Below are positions 2,648 to 31,450 of a stretch of DNA of 64,000 bases, piece by piece. The first letter of the stretch is position 1. Each line of letters starts with the position of its first letter. The stretch lies in assembly GCA_937129145.1 (NCBI GenBank), contig CAKZMU010000009.1:80551-144550 (forward strand). The letters run 5' to 3'. Both the position numbers and the translations under genes were made by a program. This stretch comes from an uncultured Lacinutrix sp. (GTDB lineage Bacteria; Bacteroidota; Bacteroidia; Flavobacteriales; Flavobacteriaceae). The notes under the pieces were generated by a model, which worked only from the letters and a program-made list of their open reading frames with translations, made no database searches and was not told the DNA's origin.

Positions 2648-3463
2648 ATGAAATACGTATTTGCATTTTTACTAACACTATCATTTTCTGTTGTTTTTGC
2701 ACAAGAAAAAGATAAAGCATTGCAAAAGTCCAACGATTTTGTCTATCAAGGTAATAGTTTGATTGAAGACGATTTTATTTCAGCAGAAAAAGAATACAGA
2801 AAAGCCATTTCAAAAAAACCGAGTAACGCTGTAGGTGCTTACAATTTAGGAAACGCCTATTACGAAACCAAAAACTTTGACGAAGCTTTATTGCGCCACA
2901 TAGAAGCTGCTAATGTTGCTAAAACCAAAGAAGAAAAGCACAGAGCATTTCACAATATTGGCAACACCTTAATGGAGCAAAAAAAGTGTAAAGAAGCGGT
3001 TGAGGCTTATAAAAACGCTTTAAGAAATAACCCAAGTGATGAAGAGTCCCGATACAATCTCGTAGTTGCTAAAGAATGTGCTGAACAACAGCAACAAAAC
3101 GAAGACGAGAACAAGGATAAGGACAAAAAAGACGAAGAGAAAGAAGACGAGAAGAAAGAGGATGAAGAAAAGAAGGACGATGGCGAAAAAGAAGATGAAA
3201 ACAAAGACGAAGGCGACCAAGATAAAAAAGATGGTGACCAAAAAGAAGATGAAGAAGGAAAGCCTAAAGACGATGAAAATCAGAAAAAAGATAGCGACCC
3301 TAAAAACCAGAAAGAAAAGCCACAACAGCAACCTGGAAAATTATCGCCTCAGCAAGTTAAAAACTTGTTAGAAGCCATGAATAATGAAGAGAAAAAGGTG
3401 CAACAAAAAATAAATGCTAAAAAAGCCAAAGGAAAGAAAGTAAAAGCCGAAAAAGATTGGTAA
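2648..3463 (+). CDS. batC: BatC: TPR-repeat protein with a signal peptide and a long charged D/E/K low-complexity tail
   Basis: Signal peptide MKYVFAFLLTLSFSVVFAQ, TPR-like AYNLGNAYY repeats, acidic/basic tail; sits at the BatC position of the operon. The track ORF starts at 2579, but the internal Met at 2648 gives the signal peptide. Confidence 0.7.
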   Translation: MKYVFAFLLTLSFSVVFAQEKDKALQKSNDFVYQGNSLIEDDFISAEKEYRKAISKKPSNAVGAYNLGNAYYETKNFDEALLRHIEAANVAKTKEEKHRAFHNIGNTLMEQKKCKEAVEAYKNALRNNPSDEESRYNLVVAKECAEQQQQNEDENKDKDKKDEEKEDEKKEDEEKKDDGEKEDENKDEGDQDKKDGDQKEDEEGKPKDDENQKKDSDPKNQKEKPQQQPGKLSPQQVKNLLEAMNNEEKKVQQKINAKKAKGKKVKAEKDW

Positions 3464-28951: not shown

Positions 28952-29497
28952 TTGAATAAAACAAACATGGAAAATAATTTACACAACAACTATGTCTTTA
29001 AAGCTATGGACGCATATCCATACGAGCTTGAAGAAACATTGGAAGCATTAAACTATGCTTTATCATATAACAATAAAGATGCGCAAGCATTATGCTTAAT
29101 GGGACGTGTTTATGCTGAACAATTAAAAGATTACGAAACAGCTAAACAATATTTTGCTGAAGCTATTGCGCAACACATGGAAATGCCAAAAACATATCCA
29201 TTTTATATCCAAACTTTATTATGGAATGGTGATTATGAAGAAGCAGATAAATTAATAACATTTGGACTAACTGTAAAGGGTACTGACAAAGCTTTATTAC
29301 AATTATTACAAGGTATTCTTTTTGAAAAACAGGGGGATTTTAAGGCTGCTATCAAGGCATATAAAAAAGCTAATAAAACAGCAACAAACAACTGCTTTAT
29401 TGAATATGTGAATAATGAAATATCTAGGGTTAAAAAGAAAATGGACCCCAGAAAGAAGAAGAAAAAGAAGTCTAACAAAAAAAGAAAGGGGAAATAA
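28952..29497 (+). CDS. TPR-like hypothetical protein with a poly-lysine C-terminus
   Basis: 181-aa ORF; TPR-like helices; KKKKKKSNKKRKGK tail. Confidence 0.5.
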   Translation: MNKTNMENNLHNNYVFKAMDAYPYELEETLEALNYALSYNNKDAQALCLMGRVYAEQLKDYETAKQYFAEAIAQHMEMPKTYPFYIQTLLWNGDYEEADKLITFGLTVKGTDKALLQLLQGILFEKQGDFKAAIKAYKKANKTATNNCFIEYVNNEISRVKKKMDPRKKKKKKSNKKRKGK

Positions 29498-29501
29498 AAA
29501 A

Positions 29502-29526
29502 ATCGGCAATCTTGTCTTGCCGATTT
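29502..29526 (+). terminator. Hairpin (weak terminator) between the TPR gene and the tRNA array
   Basis: ATCGGCAAtcttgtcTTGCCGAT followed by tt. Confidence 0.4.
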
Positions 29527-29529
29527 AAT

Positions 29530-29613
29530 GGGAACTCGTCAACGTTGGAGAGTTGGTGCAGATTGTAAACCTGTTGCTTAAATGCTAAGAAAGTTCGAAT
29601 CTTTCAGTTCCCA
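29530..29613 (+). tRNA. tRNA-Tyr(GTA), class II (long variable arm)
   Basis: Acceptor GGGAACT/AGTTCCC, anticodon loop ttGTAaa, variable stem-loop cttaAATGCtaag, T-arm GAAAGttcgaatCTTTC; one A·C mismatch in the anticodon stem. Confidence 0.7.
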
Positions 29614-29627
29614 CAAATAAATAGATT

Positions 29628-29700
29628 GACAAGGTGGCTGAACGGTTAAGGCAACAGACTGCAAATCTGTTTTTTGTGAGTTCAAATCTCACCCTTGTCT
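29628..29700 (+). tRNA. tRNA-Cys(GCA)
   Basis: Acceptor GACAAGG/CCTTGTC, anticodon arm ACAGActGCAaaTCTGT, T-arm GTGAGttcaaatCTCAC. Confidence 0.85.
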
Positions 29701-29706
29701 CAAAAT

Positions 29707-29779
29707 AGTATCGTAGCTCAATGGCTAGAGCGCTCGGTTGTCTCCCGAGAAGTTGCGGGTTCGAATCTCGTCGGTACTG
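29707..29779 (+). tRNA. tRNA-Asp(GTC), noncanonical (A1:U72, U37)
   Basis: Acceptor AGTATCG/CGGTACT, D arm GCTCaatggctaGAGC, anticodon arm CTCGGttGTCtcCCGAG, T-arm GCGGGttcgaatCTCGT. Confidence 0.65.
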
Positions 29780-29780
29780 C

Positions 29781-29844
29781 GAAGCAGTTTAAGAGATGAG
29801 AAGTTTACCCTGAGCGTAGTCGAAGGGAATCTTGTCGGTACTGC
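29781..29844 (+). repeat. 46-nt conserved spacer module (…AAGAGATGAGAAGTTTAccCTGAGCGtAGTCGAAGg) followed by an 18-nt direct repeat (17/18 identical) of the tRNA-Asp T-loop-to-3'-end segment
   Basis: gaatctCgtcggtactgc at 29763–29780 recurs as gaatctTgtcggtactgc at 29827–29844; the intervening module is ~85–90% identical to the one at 30183–30226. Confidence 0.8.
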
Positions 29845-29848
29845 AAAT

Positions 29849-29931
29849 CTGGGAGGATAATCCCGAAGGTTCGGGAGTGGTTTACTCGCTTTGGAAGCGA
29901 GAGGTTGTAGGTTCAAATCCTACCTCTCAGA
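29849..29931 (+). tRNA. tRNA-Pro(TGG)-like gene with an aberrant 29-nt D region; possibly a pseudogene
   Basis: Acceptor CTGGGAG/CTCTCAG (one G·U pair), perfect anticodon arm CTCGCttTGGaaGCGAG, perfect T arm GTAGGttcaaatCCTAC. The D region is ~10 nt too long and contains the hairpin TCCCGAaggtTCGGGA. Confidence 0.45.
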
Positions 29932-29937
29932 CAAAAT

Positions 29938-30009
29938 ACTCCGTTAGTCAAATGGCTAAGACGCCTGACTTTCTATCAGGAATTAAGGGTTCAATTCCCT
30001 TACGGAGTA
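29938..30009 (+). tRNA. tRNA-Glu(TTC), noncanonical (A1:U72, U37)
   Basis: Acceptor ACTCCGT/ACGGAGT, anticodon arm CCTGActTTCtaTCAGG, T arm AAGGGttcaattCCCTT. Confidence 0.65.
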
Positions 30010-30014
30010 CACAT

Positions 30015-30100
30015 TGAGATATAGCTTAATTGGTAGAGCGTCGCTCTCATAAGGCGAATGGTTTAGGTTCTCCCGATAGTTATCGGGACTAATATCTCAA
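30015..30100 (+). tRNA. tRNA-Met/Ile2(CAT)-like gene with an 18-nt hairpin insertion in the T loop; possibly a pseudogene
   Basis: Acceptor TGAGATA/TATCTCA, D arm GCTTaattggtaGAGC, anticodon arm TCGCTctCATaaGGCGA. The T region is TTAG-gttc-[TCCCGATAgtTATCGGGA]-CTAA. Confidence 0.45.
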
Positions 30101-30106
30101 CAACAC

Positions 30107-30179
30107 GCAGGAATGGCGAAACGGCAAACGCACTCGACTTAGAATCGAGAAACTGGGAGTTCGAATCTCTCTTCCTGTA
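30107..30179 (+). tRNA. Class-I (short variable arm) tRNA with Leu anticodon TAG
   Basis: Acceptor GCAGGAA/TTCCTGT, D arm GCGaaacggcaaaCGC, anticodon arm CTCGActTAGaaTCGAG, variable region aaact, T arm GGGAGttcgaatCTCTC, A73. Confidence 0.55.
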
Positions 30180-30182
30180 CGA

Positions 30183-30246
30183 AGTAAGGAAAGAGATGAG
30201 AAGTTTATGCTGAGCGAAGTCGAAGTGAATCTCTCTTCCTGTACGA
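30183..30246 (+). repeat. 44-nt conserved spacer module followed by a perfect 20-nt direct repeat of the upstream tRNA's T-loop-to-3'-end segment
   Basis: gaatctctcttcctgtacga at 30163–30182 and again at 30227–30246; the module agtaaggaAAGAGATGAGAAGTTTAtgCTGAGCGaAGTCGAAGt is homologous to 29781–29826. Confidence 0.85.
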
Positions 30247-30247
30247 T

Positions 30248-30321
30248 GCTCCACTAGCCCAAATGGAAGAGGCAACAGTTTTAAGCGCTGTTAAGTCCAA
30301 GTTCGAATCTTGGGTGGAGTA
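30248..30321 (+). tRNA. Class-I tRNA with Leu anticodon TAA
   Basis: Acceptor GCTCCAC/GTGGAGT (G1·U72), anticodon arm ACAGTttTAAgcGCTGT, variable region taagt, T arm CCAAGttcgaatCTTGG, A73. Confidence 0.5.
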
Positions 30322-30327
30322 CAAAAT

Positions 30328-30451
30328 AAGCTTATGGTGTAATGGAAAGCACACAAGGTTTAGCTCATGCATATCTATTTCAAGAAATAGGTATTCGTGA
30401 ATGCAAAGCATTTCGAACCTTGGAGTATGGGTTCAAGTCCTATTAAGCTTA
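30328..30451 (+). tRNA. 124-nt tRNA-like gene carrying a ~52-nt structured insertion in the anticodon loop
   Basis: Acceptor AAGCTTA/TAAGCTT, D arm GTGTaatggaaaGCAC, anticodon stem CAAGG…CCTTG separated by 59 nt, T arm ATGGGttcaagtCCTAT. Mature anticodon TAG if spliced at 37/38, TCG if at 33/34. Confidence 0.45.
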
Positions 30452-30456
30452 CAAAA

Positions 30457-30527
30457 TAACCTGTGGTGTAACGGTAACACTCAAGATTTTGATTCTTGTA
30501 TTATAGGTTCGAATCCTATCAGGTTAT
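30457..30527 (+). tRNA. tRNA-Gln(TTG)
   Basis: U1:A72 acceptor TAACCTG/CAGGTTA, D arm GTGTaacggtaACAC, anticodon arm CAAGAttTTGatTCTTG, T arm ATAGGttcgaatCCTAT. Confidence 0.8.
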
Positions 30528-30535
30528 CAAAAAAT

Positions 30536-30608
30536 GGAACAGTAGCAAAGTTGGTCAATGCGTCGGACTGAAAATCTGAAAATACAGGTTCAATTCCTGT
30601 CTGTTCCA
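30536..30608 (+). tRNA. tRNA-Phe(GAA)
   Basis: Acceptor GGAACAG/CTGTTCC, anticodon arm TCGGActGAAaaTCTGA, T arm ACAGGttcaattCCTGT. Confidence 0.85.
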
Positions 30609-30621
30609 CTAAAATTAAAGA

Positions 30622-30639
30622 TTCCTGCCTATGCAGGAA
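30622..30639 (+). other. Perfect 7-bp hairpin TTCCTGCctatGCAGGAA inside the array; the agattcctgc motif recurs at 31045–31056
   Basis: Inverted repeat read directly; no T-tract follows, so it is not a canonical terminator. Confidence 0.4.
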
Positions 30640-30767
30640 ATAATATCAAGCTGGTCTTGTTGAGTGTTTCGGTATAGCACTATTGTATAAATCGTTGCAG
30701 AAATGCATCATGAGTTTATGTTCAACTAGACTTGAAGGTTTTGACTGTTAACCAAAAAATGGTCTCC

Positions 30768-30843
30768 CCCTATAGGTCGTGGGTTCGACTCCCACTTATC
30801 CCAATTGGGATAGTAGTTCAGTGGTTAGAACAATAGGATGTAG
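30768..30843 (+). tRNA. Apparently circularly permuted tRNA gene: 3' half (nt 38–73), 3-nt linker, then 5' half (nt 1–37); the mature anticodon would be GTA
   Basis: 3' half: c-CCTAT-aggtc-GTGGGttcgactCCCAC-TTATCCC-a. Linker att. 5' half: GGGATAG-ta-GTTCagtggttaGAAC-a-ATAGG-atGTAg. The acceptor pairs over 7 bp and the anticodon stem ATAGG/CCTAT pairs over 5 bp. Confidence 0.45.
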
Positions 30844-30888
30844 GTGTTGCTGGTTCGATTCCAGTCGTTTGCTTGGAGAAATTCCTTG

Positions 30889-30948
30889 GCAATAGTAGCT
30901 CAATTGGTAGAGCACTGCACTTTTAATGCAGGTTTGGACTCAAAATCC
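30889..30948 (+). pseudogene. Truncated tRNA-Lys(TTT)-like 5' portion with a degenerate T arm and no 3' acceptor strand
   Basis: GCAATAG-ta-GCTCaattggtaGAGC-a-CTGCActTTTaaTGCAG-gttt, then only a 3-bp GGA/TCC stem; no complementary 3' acceptor strand nearby. Confidence 0.4.
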
Positions 30949-30988
30949 ACAATCAAAAGCCCATCATCTTTTAAAACTGATGACCAAC

Positions 30989-31005
30989 GCAGATTGTCAT
31001 TCTGC
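30989..31005 (+). other. Isolated anticodon-arm-like hairpin GCAGAttGTCatTCTGC, a tRNA fragment
   Basis: A 5-bp stem with a 7-nt loop reading as an Asp GTC anticodon. The nearby ggtcgtggga at 31081 resembles the T-arm of the permuted gene. Confidence 0.35.
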
Positions 31006-31450
31006 TCAACAAAAATGACAAAAATAGTAGATTGCAAGTCGGCTTTAGATTCCTGCATTACTGACGCATCGGTCAACACTGGTCGTGGGAATGACAAAAC
31101 TAGAGCAGTCTTGAAAGTGCCTTGAAATACTGATTTTTAATAGTAGAAGTGGTTACTGTTTTGTAATAAGAAATTATATAAATCTGATTATCGATTCATA
31201 TAGTTGTCACAATACTCAGCACTAATTACAGGCACTATTAATATGAGTATTTCCGCACCAGAAAAATGATTTGCTTTCTGCTATTTTTAACAATGAAGAG
31301 ATATAAAAATATACTTCAATTAATGATGAACTCGTCATTGTTTTTTGAAGTTGGTAAGCCTTCCGTTACAAGAATTGCCGCCACGCTCAAAAATGGGCAA
31401 CAATAAATGTTTAATCTTCCTGAAATAAATTCAGGATAAAAAAATTAGAA

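Follow-up and report, generated by a model that had tools for sequence, protein, structure and literature searches.

A direct repeat in a Bacteroidota tRNA array as the probable target duplication of a miniature unit anchored in the tRNA T-loop

The tRNA-Leu(TAG)-like gene in the 64,000-nt stretch of DNA analysed here (hereafter the window) is followed by a second copy of its own 3' end, and we consider that this repeat is probably a duplication of the target, produced on insertion of a miniature, non-autonomous unit that would be anchored in the T-loop of tRNA genes. A specific mechanism, either targeted insertion with duplication or site-specific recombination, had already been put forward in a preliminary description of the region. 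This proposal is now backed by the clean empty sites present in related arrays, the recurrent anchoring of the duplication at A58, the presence of zero to three units per site and a predicted fold that resembles half a tRNA. The features to which the text refers are the following.

30107-30180, + strand: tRNA-Leu(TAG)-like gene, the presumed insertion target (ARAGORN; Rfam tRNA, 66.6 bits at 30107-30179)
30164-30180, + strand: X, first copy of AATCTCTCTTCCTGTAC (limits set by the empty sites of L126 and L128 and the filled site of L129)
30181-30183, + strand: 3-nt loop GAA, leading from X to the inverted copy (from the sequence)
30184-30197, + strand: antiX, GTAAGGAAAGAGAT (fold; inner-helix covariation in 25 units)
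30198-30207, + strand: predicted single-stranded junction GAGA-AGUUUA (alignment of 25 units)
30208-30227, + strand: core hairpin UGCU-GA-GC-GAA-G(U)C-GA-AGUG (pairing in 25 units; covariation in 127 copies)
30228-30244, + strand: X', second copy of tRNA positions 58-74 (from the sequence)
30181-30244, + strand: 64-nt unit after Leu(TAG), consisting of loop, antiX, junction, hairpin and X' in this order
30248-30322, + strand: tRNA-Leu(TAA)-like gene (ARAGORN)
29781-29844, + strand: sister 64-nt unit after tRNA-Asp(GTC), which lies at 29707-29780 (alignment and fold; orthologous units in L126 and L129)
29781-29783 and 29784-29797, + strand: loop and antiX (GCAGTTTAAGAGAT) of the sister unit (from the sequence)
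29798-29807, 29808-29827 and 29828-29844, + strand: GAGA-AGTTTA, hairpin and X' (AATCTTGTCGGTACTGC) of the sister unit (from the sequence)

The 20-nt repeat originally noted, GAATCTCTCTTCCTGTACGA, is present in exactly two copies in the whole 64-kb window, at 30163-30182 and 30227-30246, both on the + strand and identical at 20 of 20 positions; a third match was absent from the window even when 3 mismatches were allowed. None of 100 dinucleotide shuffles contained two matches to GAATCTCTCTTCCTGTACGA, and a chance origin of the repeat is excluded. The preliminary description had judged chance to be very unlikely and had recognised a second copy of the spacer module, and it was right on both counts: the 35-nt AAGAGATGAGAAGTTTAnnCTGAGCGnAGTCGAAG occurs only at 29791-29825 and 30191-30225, where 0 copies are expected by chance. 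The 44 nt that separate the two copies of the repeat (30183-30226) also read as they had been given, and ARAGORN places the start of tRNA-Leu(taa) at 30248, the position named earlier for the Leu(TAA)-like gene. One detail has to be corrected. The repeat had been described as ending 1 nt beyond the tRNA, and it actually ends 2-3 nt past it, depending on whether the gene end of ARAGORN (30180) or that of Rfam (30179) is taken.

Comparison with orthologues shows that the true evolutionary duplication is 17 nt long, namely AATCTCTCTTCCTGTAC, which corresponds to tRNA positions 58-74 and is found at 30164-30180 and 30228-30244. Of the three further bases of the 20-mer, the G on the left is the final base of the module hairpin, and the GA on the right is a chance agreement between the loop (GAA) and the spacer (GAT). 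The upstream gene encodes a class I tRNA with a short variable arm and does not encode CCA; X comprises the T-loop A58, the 3' strand of the T-stem, the 3' strand of the acceptor, the discriminator and C74. The 47 nt located between the 17-nt repeats make up the non-target part of the unit. They begin with the 3-nt loop, which reads AAA in L129 and L126, and continue with antiX, an imperfect 14-nt reverse complement of positions 74-59 of X' less two bases, whose partner would be X' or, alternatively, X. The core hairpin of 20 nt consists of a 4-bp stem, tandem G·A pairs, 2 bp with a bulged U and a GNA triloop, and its general form can be written as YNCU-GA-GC-GNA-G(U)C-GA-AGNR. In the case of the sister unit, X' (AATCTTGTCGGTACTGC) is identical at 16 of 17 positions to X at 29764-29780, and the single change, C-to-T, preserves a G·U pair with antiX. 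Both units found in the 64 kb are in direct orientation and linked to a tRNA gene. With two copies only in the 64-kb window, the element does not seem to be multiplying in this genome.

The window represents ordinary chromosomal DNA of a Flavobacteriia-like member of Bacteroidota and not a phage. The tRNA array is flanked by genes for RecJ, OsmC, a CMD-family protein, a TPR protein, an SPFH/Band-7 protein and an M28 peptidase, and elsewhere the window (GC ~34%) contains genes for T9SS-tail proteins, a BatA operon and PdxA. A phage origin was considered and rejected, because isolated tRNA similarities were all that blastn of the array found among 50,697 phage records and the flanking genes are chromosomal genes of Bacteroidota. 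No integrase gene adjoins the array, and no RAYT/IS200-like transposase was found among the 25 largest of the 99 protein families in the window. An exact look-up of the TPR protein gave no match, and the contigs that match the SPFH protein in such a look-up break at the array. The array itself is rich in degenerate tRNA-like sequences and contains other small insertions.

Relatives were found via the SPFH gene in related Flavobacteriia-like metagenome contigs, in which a homologous tRNA array is located upstream of this gene; these SPFH-linked loci constitute the only unbiased sample of units. Five of seven arrays (L126, L128, L134, L135 and L138) have no unit between Leu(tag) and Leu(taa), the two tRNAs being 3-4 nt apart; only the window and L129 have one there, of 63-64 nt. 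Empty and filled Leu sites differ by exactly the module plus one repeat, and the flanks of L128 and L129 are near-identical, with the unit present in L129 only. Because the more distant genomes are empty, the empty state is taken to be the ancestral one, and the unit was gained. The distribution observed, with the unit present in the window and L129 and absent from L126 and L128, can be reached only by two gains or by a single gain with two precise losses. At the Asp site, L135 and L137 are empty, the window and L126 have one unit each and L129 has two. Tandem pairs of units are present in L005, L022, L114, L115 and L129, and L149 has three tandem units after tRNA-Lys, where an additional insertion is seen in the hairpin apex. 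When a covariance model of the unit was run over 640 kb of SPFH-linked loci, no extra copies were detected except the three of L149. With no unit in most arrays and one to three tandem units in others, the unit is thus gained, lost and amplified as one block.

The link with tRNA genes is a property of those copies of the hairpin that are preceded by GAGA. Among the matches listed, 22 of 23 GAGA-class copies lie at most 200 nt 3' of a tRNA gene on the same strand, the second unit in L096 being the sole exception, versus 2 of 106 other copies. In 18 of the 20 GAGA copies among the matches listed, the 3' flank recurs upstream as a direct repeat, versus 3 of 90 others and 2 of 90 in a shifted control, and the last two values led us to reject the idea that the hairpin as such comes with a direct repeat. 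As judged from these sequence matches, GAGA is diagnostic of a tRNA-linked subclass. Twelve tRNA species (Ile, Lys, Gln, Met, Thr, His, Leu, Asn, Gly, Arg, Trp and Asp) are represented among the matches listed, and the hosts of this class among them are Flavobacteriaceae, one cyanobacterial MAG and two Pseudomonadota MAGs; in the cyanobacterial MAG (L005), two units are located in the 16S-23S spacer after tRNA-Ile. Cultured strains that carry the unit include Olleya aquimaris DSM 24464, Gelidibacter gilvus IC158, Winogradskyella immobilis E313, Croceitalea marina KCTC 52368 and Arenibacter sp. 6A1. The duplicated tRNA copy starts at the T-loop A58 in every unit, and hence the upstream tRNA stays intact. 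Also in every unit, the 5' arm of the module is complementary to the copied tRNA strand. The copy ends at position 74 when the genes are tightly packed and at position 76 when CCA is encoded (L096), and in some genera it extends up to 84 nt further, with trailer and terminator included; between genera, the length of the repeat ranges from 8 to >80 nt.

An alignment of 25 units separates the conserved from the variable positions, as had been proposed at the outset: GAGA-AGUUUA is invariant in 24 of them, the exception being L126, which has GAGG, and antiX and X' differ for each tRNA. In the MFE fold, antiX and X' form a 14-bp helix with two bulges that is similar to a stacked acceptor/T arm. 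It should be noted that the stability of single sequences relative to shuffles was insignificant (z of -1.36 and -0.04), and that the structure is proposed because of comparative evidence, not because of folding energy. In the 25-unit alignment, the proposed structure has 89.5% of its cells paired, and both partners have changed in 9 of its 13 pairs; none of 500 shuffles reached these values, and slid registers gave 37-54%. The 6 proposed pairs of the core hairpin are 100% paired in these units. Covariation links the base preceding GAGA to tRNA position 59 (C-G, 16 units; U-A, 6 units), a pairing that leaves A58 as the sole unpaired base at the 3' junction. Covariation is also seen at the two variable pairs of the core stem over the 127 distinct copies listed, where the inner pair is C-G in 98, G·U in 14 and A-U in 11 copies, and the outer pair is U·G in 55, C-G in 40 and U-A in 31; there are ~5 mismatches, and G·U is plentiful at these two pairs, whereas C·A occurs in just 2 of 254 cells. 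An asymmetry of this kind, rich in G·U and poor in A·C, implies that the hairpin forms on the strand given here, either as RNA or as single-stranded DNA, and the pairing pattern indicates that this is no symmetric duplex site.

The comparative data show a predicted fold in which the tRNA-sense strand adopts an extended mimic of the acceptor/T arm, with the core hairpin replacing the 5' half of the T-loop. Compared with a tRNA minihelix (a ~12-bp acceptor/T helix with a 3' single strand and a T-loop), the unit has the 14-bp helix with its two bulges, and a 30-nt core in place of the T-loop. The earlier suggestion that module plus repeat might mimic a tRNA 3' half therefore finds support in both the fold and the 25-unit covariation, since the two together resemble the 3' half of the acceptor/T arm. 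We interpret antiX as an inverted copy of the 3' strand because it pairs with the discriminator, position 74 and T-loop positions 59-60. The alternative that antiX represents the tRNA's own 5' strands, as in an internally deleted tRNA copy, was rejected on account of the pairs that antiX makes at positions 73-74 and 59-60 and because an inverted copy calls for fewer changes. A junction formed via a TCGA microhomology between T-loop and hairpin was also rejected, as the full hairpin comes before A58.

The core hairpin itself is very widespread, which, like the inverted tRNA copy within the module, was beyond the reach of the preliminary description. It was searched for with AGTTTANNCTGAGCGNAGTCGAAG against one genome per species, with 21 exact bases demanded, and this genome scan yielded at least 119 loci in >15 phyla; because of the requirement for 21 exact bases, the apparent sequence conservation is partly a product of how the copies were found, and the figure of at least 119 is no measure of abundance. 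The hosts belong to Bacteroidota, Cyanobacteria, Chloroflexota, several Patescibacteria, Acidobacteriota and Delta-, Gamma- and Alphaproteobacteria, and further to Planctomycetota, Omnitrophota, Armatimonadota, Eremiobacterota, Binatia, Dependentiae, Ignavibacteria and Gemmatimonadota, a list that is non-exhaustive. An exact search of viral contigs with the 31-nt module gave 0 matches, and the 24-nt core had just 4 matches among 2.9 million viral contigs. The core hairpin is found on either strand and in many unrelated contexts, and some genomes contain multiple copies (L060, L093 and L107; Flavivirga). Many copies are nested in the apical loop of another palindrome, which in some cases is a CGTC-tagged REP-like hairpin (tag according to PMC3733652) and in others an inverted copy of the element itself, of the CCTTCGAC..GCTCAGG class. 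All-against-all clustering of the ORFs located within 2.5 kb of the 119 listed loci revealed no shared neighbour protein, only the synteny of close relatives. Rfam 15 reported no family on the module at E<=10 (searched over 29300-31200) and none at gathering score in 18 related loci; a 17-bit Rfam match to SNORD38 is noise. A mini-ORF, MRSL(P/C)*, was discarded as it is confined to UGAGA variants.

If the repeat is indeed a target duplication, the unit would enter the tRNA gene by Campbell-type exchange, the donor being a small copy of the unit in circular or folded form. Where such a copy is single-stranded, pairing of antiX with X' would provide a stand-in for the duplex 3' end of the tRNA at which the exchange would take place. 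The order X-loop-antiX-core-X' fits this scheme because it is exactly what a Campbell-type exchange predicts. Loss or multiplication of the unit could occur by recombination or slippage between the 17-nt direct repeats, and the catalyst would be a trans-acting enzyme that is encoded elsewhere and not nearby. Within the polycistronic RNA, the unit probably amounts to a harmless minihelix, to be trimmed by RNase P/Z. Points against the insertion reading are the low copy number in the window and the variable length of the repeat, classical transposases producing target duplications of fixed length. The direct repeat is found only in the tRNA-linked subclass, and for this reason the units could also be a selected functional arrangement and not a by-product of insertion.

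Such an arrangement would be a cis-acting RNA element that benefits the host, i.e. a tRNA-like minihelix in which antiX:X' imitates the acceptor/T arm of the upstream tRNA, and we regard this as a rather unlikely explanation of the sequences. The element might provide a surrogate downstream 'tRNA' for RNase P, RNase Z or RNase E and thereby a short 3' trailer for a CCA-less tRNA; it might be a stable minihelix small RNA or a decoy for tRNA-binding factors; or the GAGA-AGUUUA junction and the hairpin might form a protein or nuclease site, AG|UUU in the junction being in keeping with the preference of RNase E. Consistent with a role as RNA, the unit is always in the tRNA-sense strand and inside transcribed spacers of tRNA/rRNA operons, and it folds as a single strand with many G·U pairs. 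In L109, X' has been held identical to X (21/21) as the adjacent duplicated terminators diverged (~24/28), the changes observed in X' remain wobble-compatible with antiX (C-to-U in the Asp unit of the window and A-to-G in L126), and a compensatory double change from G·U to C-G separates the Leu hairpin of the window from that of L129. However, the unit is dispensable, as most orthologous arrays are without it and close relatives differ in this respect; the orthologous units of the window and L129 have diverged faster than the flanking tRNA (~17% vs ~5%, hand count); some copies are decaying (the loop of the L129 Leu unit and the units of L149); and the hairpin is present on either strand in many unrelated contexts. 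A small self-cleaving ribozyme of the theta, hammerhead or hairpin-like type that trims tRNA trailers is a separate and highly improbable explanation. Theta (minimal HDV-like) ribozymes are adjacent to tRNAs in gut phages (PMC10879173), and the unit resembles them in being a small, structured, RNA-like element immediately 3' of tRNAs in clusters, where it occupies the entire inter-tRNA spacer; it also has strongly conserved unpaired nucleotides, tandem G·A pairs and a superficial likeness to the CUGA...GAA boxes of hammerheads. It differs from theta ribozymes in that it resides on a bacterial chromosome and is nearly absent from phage contigs, carries a copy of the tRNA 3' end and has no HDV match in Rfam. 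The hallmarks of HDV-like ribozymes are a nested double pseudoknot (P1, P1.1, P2, P3 and P4) and a catalytic cytosine as the first base of J4/2 (PMC10879173), whereas the comparative structure and the MFE folds contain two nested helices only, without double-pseudoknot topology and without a J4/2 cytosine, the 3' junction being a single A. No Rfam ribozyme family was detected at E<=10, and none at gathering score in 18 other loci, and in many Flavobacteriaceae a terminator intervenes between the tRNA and the module. The hammerhead was rejected because CUGAGCG...CGAAG lies in one continuous hairpin, there is no three-way junction with a CUGANGA core and GAAA, and Rfam gave no match; when hammerhead, hairpin, twister, pistol and HDV ribozymes were each compared by eye with the conserved bases and the comparative fold, none fitted.

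A direct repeat that runs from the T-loop to the 3' end is the classical signature of integrase insertion into tRNA genes, and the repeat described here has this very extent. The unit could accordingly be viewed as the scar or minimal att site of a tyrosine-integrase island, with the intact tRNA as attL, the 3' fragment as attR and the module as the island end, and a XerD-like recombinase gene is indeed present near 4 of the 119 listed loci. We nevertheless consider this very unlikely. All 23 listed GAGA copies but the second unit of L096 have a tRNA on the same strand within 200 nt of the module, no full-length island with the module at one end is present among the listed loci, and no integrase gene is adjacent in the window. 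Moreover, a single 31-nt core occurs beside 12 different tRNAs in three phyla, an inverted target copy inside a scar would be unexpected, and so would a one-strand fold with G·U pairs in a duplex att site. We find it hardly credible that the repeat arose by chance or by ordinary duplication, tandem or segmental, in a tRNA array that is accessory and decaying. Such an origin would agree with an array that is full of degenerate tRNA-like sequences and with the tandem copies in relatives, but chance is excluded, and the arrangement recurs in unrelated genomes and tRNAs, so that the recurrence statistics already refute it. The preliminary description had named a longer duplicated block in related genomes as the observation that would point to ordinary segmental duplication. 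Tandem and longer repeats do exist in relatives, and they are always anchored at A58 and always carry at the junction the conserved module with its target-complementary arm, which is why the block is not an ordinary segmental duplication.

Seen as an insertion unit, the 64-nt element shares with tRNA-targeting integrative elements the tRNA-gene target, the T-loop-to-3'-end direct repeat and the regenerated tRNA, as well as an order of parts that fits a Campbell-type exchange and the capacity to be lost precisely; as in those elements, the 3' part of the tRNA (A58 to 74 or beyond) forms the bounding direct repeat. It differs from them in that the insert is only 47-100 nt long and non-coding, with no integrase or cargo between the repeats, and in having an inverted target copy, a one-strand G·U fold and a single 31-nt core for many tRNAs. 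Phages of the CTX type integrate as folded single-stranded DNA by means of XerCD (IMEX); they are kilobase-sized and target dif. In their case, too, a hairpin of two inverted copies imitates the duplex target, and the target is left on both sides with an inverted copy inside, which is the order of parts in X-loop-antiX-core-X'. A MITE differs from the unit in that the inverted arms of the latter are derived from the target and are different for every tRNA, its repeat is not of fixed length and no transposase is found. Compared with PATEs derived from IS200/IS605, a duplication is present and the left hairpin, X:antiX, is tRNA-specific and not conserved. The cyanobacterial SDRs that Elhai et al. 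reportedly described in 2008 are 21-27-nt repeats that look mobile and nest in each other and in hairpins; SDRs are not known to show duplication of a tRNA 3' end.

The core, for its part, resembles the REP families, i.e. the GTAG- and CGTC-tagged palindromic repeats and REPINs (PMC3733652, PMC3116915), in being a hairpin repeat of ~26 nt with an unpaired 5' tag (AGUUUA) that is intergenic, present in many phyla and often nested in or beside other palindromes. IS elements are known to insert into REP loops, for instance IS1397 (cited in PMC3116915). As with the CGTC repeats, no dedicated transposase is found nearby: no protein, and thus no RAYT/IS200-like transposase flanked by the repeats, recurs within 2.5 kb of the 119 listed loci. 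The differences are that the tag is neither GTAG nor CGTC and the stem, too, departs from those families, that 21 or more identical bases are shared across >15 phyla, whereas REPs are usually lineage-specific, and that the copy number is low in the window. REPs and REPINs occur in many copies per genome, mostly as inverted dimers; the window has two direct copies in 64 kb, and some genomes have several. Nothing like the tRNA-linked subclass, in which the target is copied both directly and in inverted form, appears in the REP papers (PMC3733652, PMC3116915). Neither the core nor the tRNA-linked unit was found described in Rfam 15 or in the literature searched by sequence string and keyword, and we rate the two as combining features of small palindromic repeats with those of tRNA-targeted integration with 3'-end duplication.

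It is tempting to ask whether this is a new kind of genetic element, either a minimal integrative element or a conserved RNA module grafted onto different tRNAs, a view that we put forward tentatively and hold to be possible though on the unlikely side. In the former case, it could be an integrative element smaller than a tRNA, whose folded single strand imitates the 3' end of a tRNA gene and integrates at the T-loop, and this would create the direct and inverted target copies. In the latter case, it could be a tRNA-minihelix small RNA or a processing device that is found on a dozen tRNAs across phyla. With ~47 nt of non-target sequence, 21 or more bases kept across >15 phyla and a single T-loop nucleotide targeted, something widespread must recognise the element.

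The combination of GAGA-AGUUUA, the 20-nt hairpin and a copy of the tRNA from position 58 onward provides a signature that can be searched for, and this signature accounts for the incomplete tRNA 3' ends and the tandem repeats that follow tRNA genes in Flavobacteriaceae, in a cyanobacterial rRNA spacer and in Pseudomonadota. For annotation, it gives grounds against calling such downstream fragments pseudo-tRNAs or att sites of missing islands. A mobile unit would be among the smallest known site-specific elements and would make tRNA arrays unstable and assemblies prone to break there; a unit acting as an RNA device would be a new player in the processing of tRNA operons. Should either view be true, an unrecognised trans-acting machinery that reads tRNA T-arms would be at work.

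The region at 29540-30960 of the window is an accessory tRNA cluster, whose position upstream of an SPFH gene is kept in many related metagenome contigs. Its tRNAs do not have an encoded CCA, and the array 'Leu' tRNAs (TAG and TAA) are of class I, with a length of 73-75 nt and without a long variable arm, a form from which bacterial tRNA-Leu normally differs. Several further members of the array are degenerate, being visible as weak Rfam tRNA matches at 29547, 29871, 30807 and 30889. The following features of the array are relevant here:

30014-30100, CAT-anticodon tRNA-like gene with a T-loop insertion at 30071-30088, after GGTTC
30358-30409, insertion of 52 nt (GTTTAGCTCATGCATATCTATTTCAAGAAATAGGTATTCGTGAATGCAAAGC), AT-rich and able to form a hairpin, within the anticodon loop of a tRNA (30328-30446) that resembles Arg(ACG)
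30734-30835, T-arm/acceptor-like fragment ggtcgtgggttcgactcccac with weak matches to the tmRNA tRNA-like domain and to YrlA

The last of these scores 23 bits against the tmRNA tRNA-like domain and 32.9 bits against YrlA (Y-RNA-like), the gathering score of the latter being 69; the tmRNA- and YrlA-like matches are probably further degenerate tRNA pieces.

The 52-nt insertion has removed the ACG anticodon of the Arg(ACG)-like tRNA, and it is absent from the orthologues in the related metagenome contigs L126, L128 and L129. A relative of this insertion in reverse orientation (ATGCATAGCATTCATAAGTACCTATTTATAAAAATAGATAC...) is present in the T-loops of other tRNAs of L128 and L129, contigs with almost identical flanks. 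In the CAT-anticodon tRNA-like gene, which was missed by ARAGORN and scores just 30.6 bits with Rfam, the T-loop insertion is an 18-nt perfect hairpin, TCCCGATAGTTATCGGGA, and the L128/L129 counterpart of this tRNA carries the AT-rich hairpin, of ~50 nt, at the same T-loop site. The AT-rich insertions look like a second family of mini-insertions aimed at tRNA loops.

Other insertions were observed in the orthologous Leu tRNAs. The Leu(TAA) gene of L129 contains an insertion of ~50 nt, attggcaagtaaaaactatagtttttacgaaggcaccgagcgtagctctg, in the anticodon-stem region (about 2455-2505), which is absent from L128 and terminates in a GAGCGTAGCTC hairpin, a relative of the bulge-less 'GAGCGNAGCGA' palindromes. 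The Leu(TAG) orthologue of the related contig L134 has a 19-nt GC-rich hairpin, GGCCTGCCTGCCGCAGGCA, directly 5' of the T-arm (about 2705-2725; alignment of the Leu(TAG)|Leu(TAA) junction).

Two metagenome contigs (L120 and L121), encoding an SPFH protein identical to that of the window, stop at the border of the tRNA array, within 60-400 nt upstream of the gene. This suggests that short-read assemblies break at the array on account of its repeats and of variation among strains. In Arenibacter, a Flavo-1 RNA (Rfam RF01705, 47.7 bits; L116, 7274-7358, minus strand) shares one 8-kb locus with a tRNA-Asn unit, to which it is probably unrelated.

In a Babeliaceae (Dependentiae) genome (L058, 2840-2935), the widespread 20-nt hairpin element is located on the opposite strand from a tRNA gene and between the two copies of a 13-nt direct repeat, CCACCCCGGCGCA, which equals the reverse complement of the 5' end of that tRNA; this repeat is a duplication at the other (5') end of the tRNA gene. 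In L129, the D-loop of an ATA-anticodon tRNA contains a diverged core hairpin, CTGAGCACAGTCGAAG, in reverse orientation (2726-2745, minus strand), and this D-loop is intact in the near-identical L128. The hairpin element can thus land in tRNA loops in either orientation.
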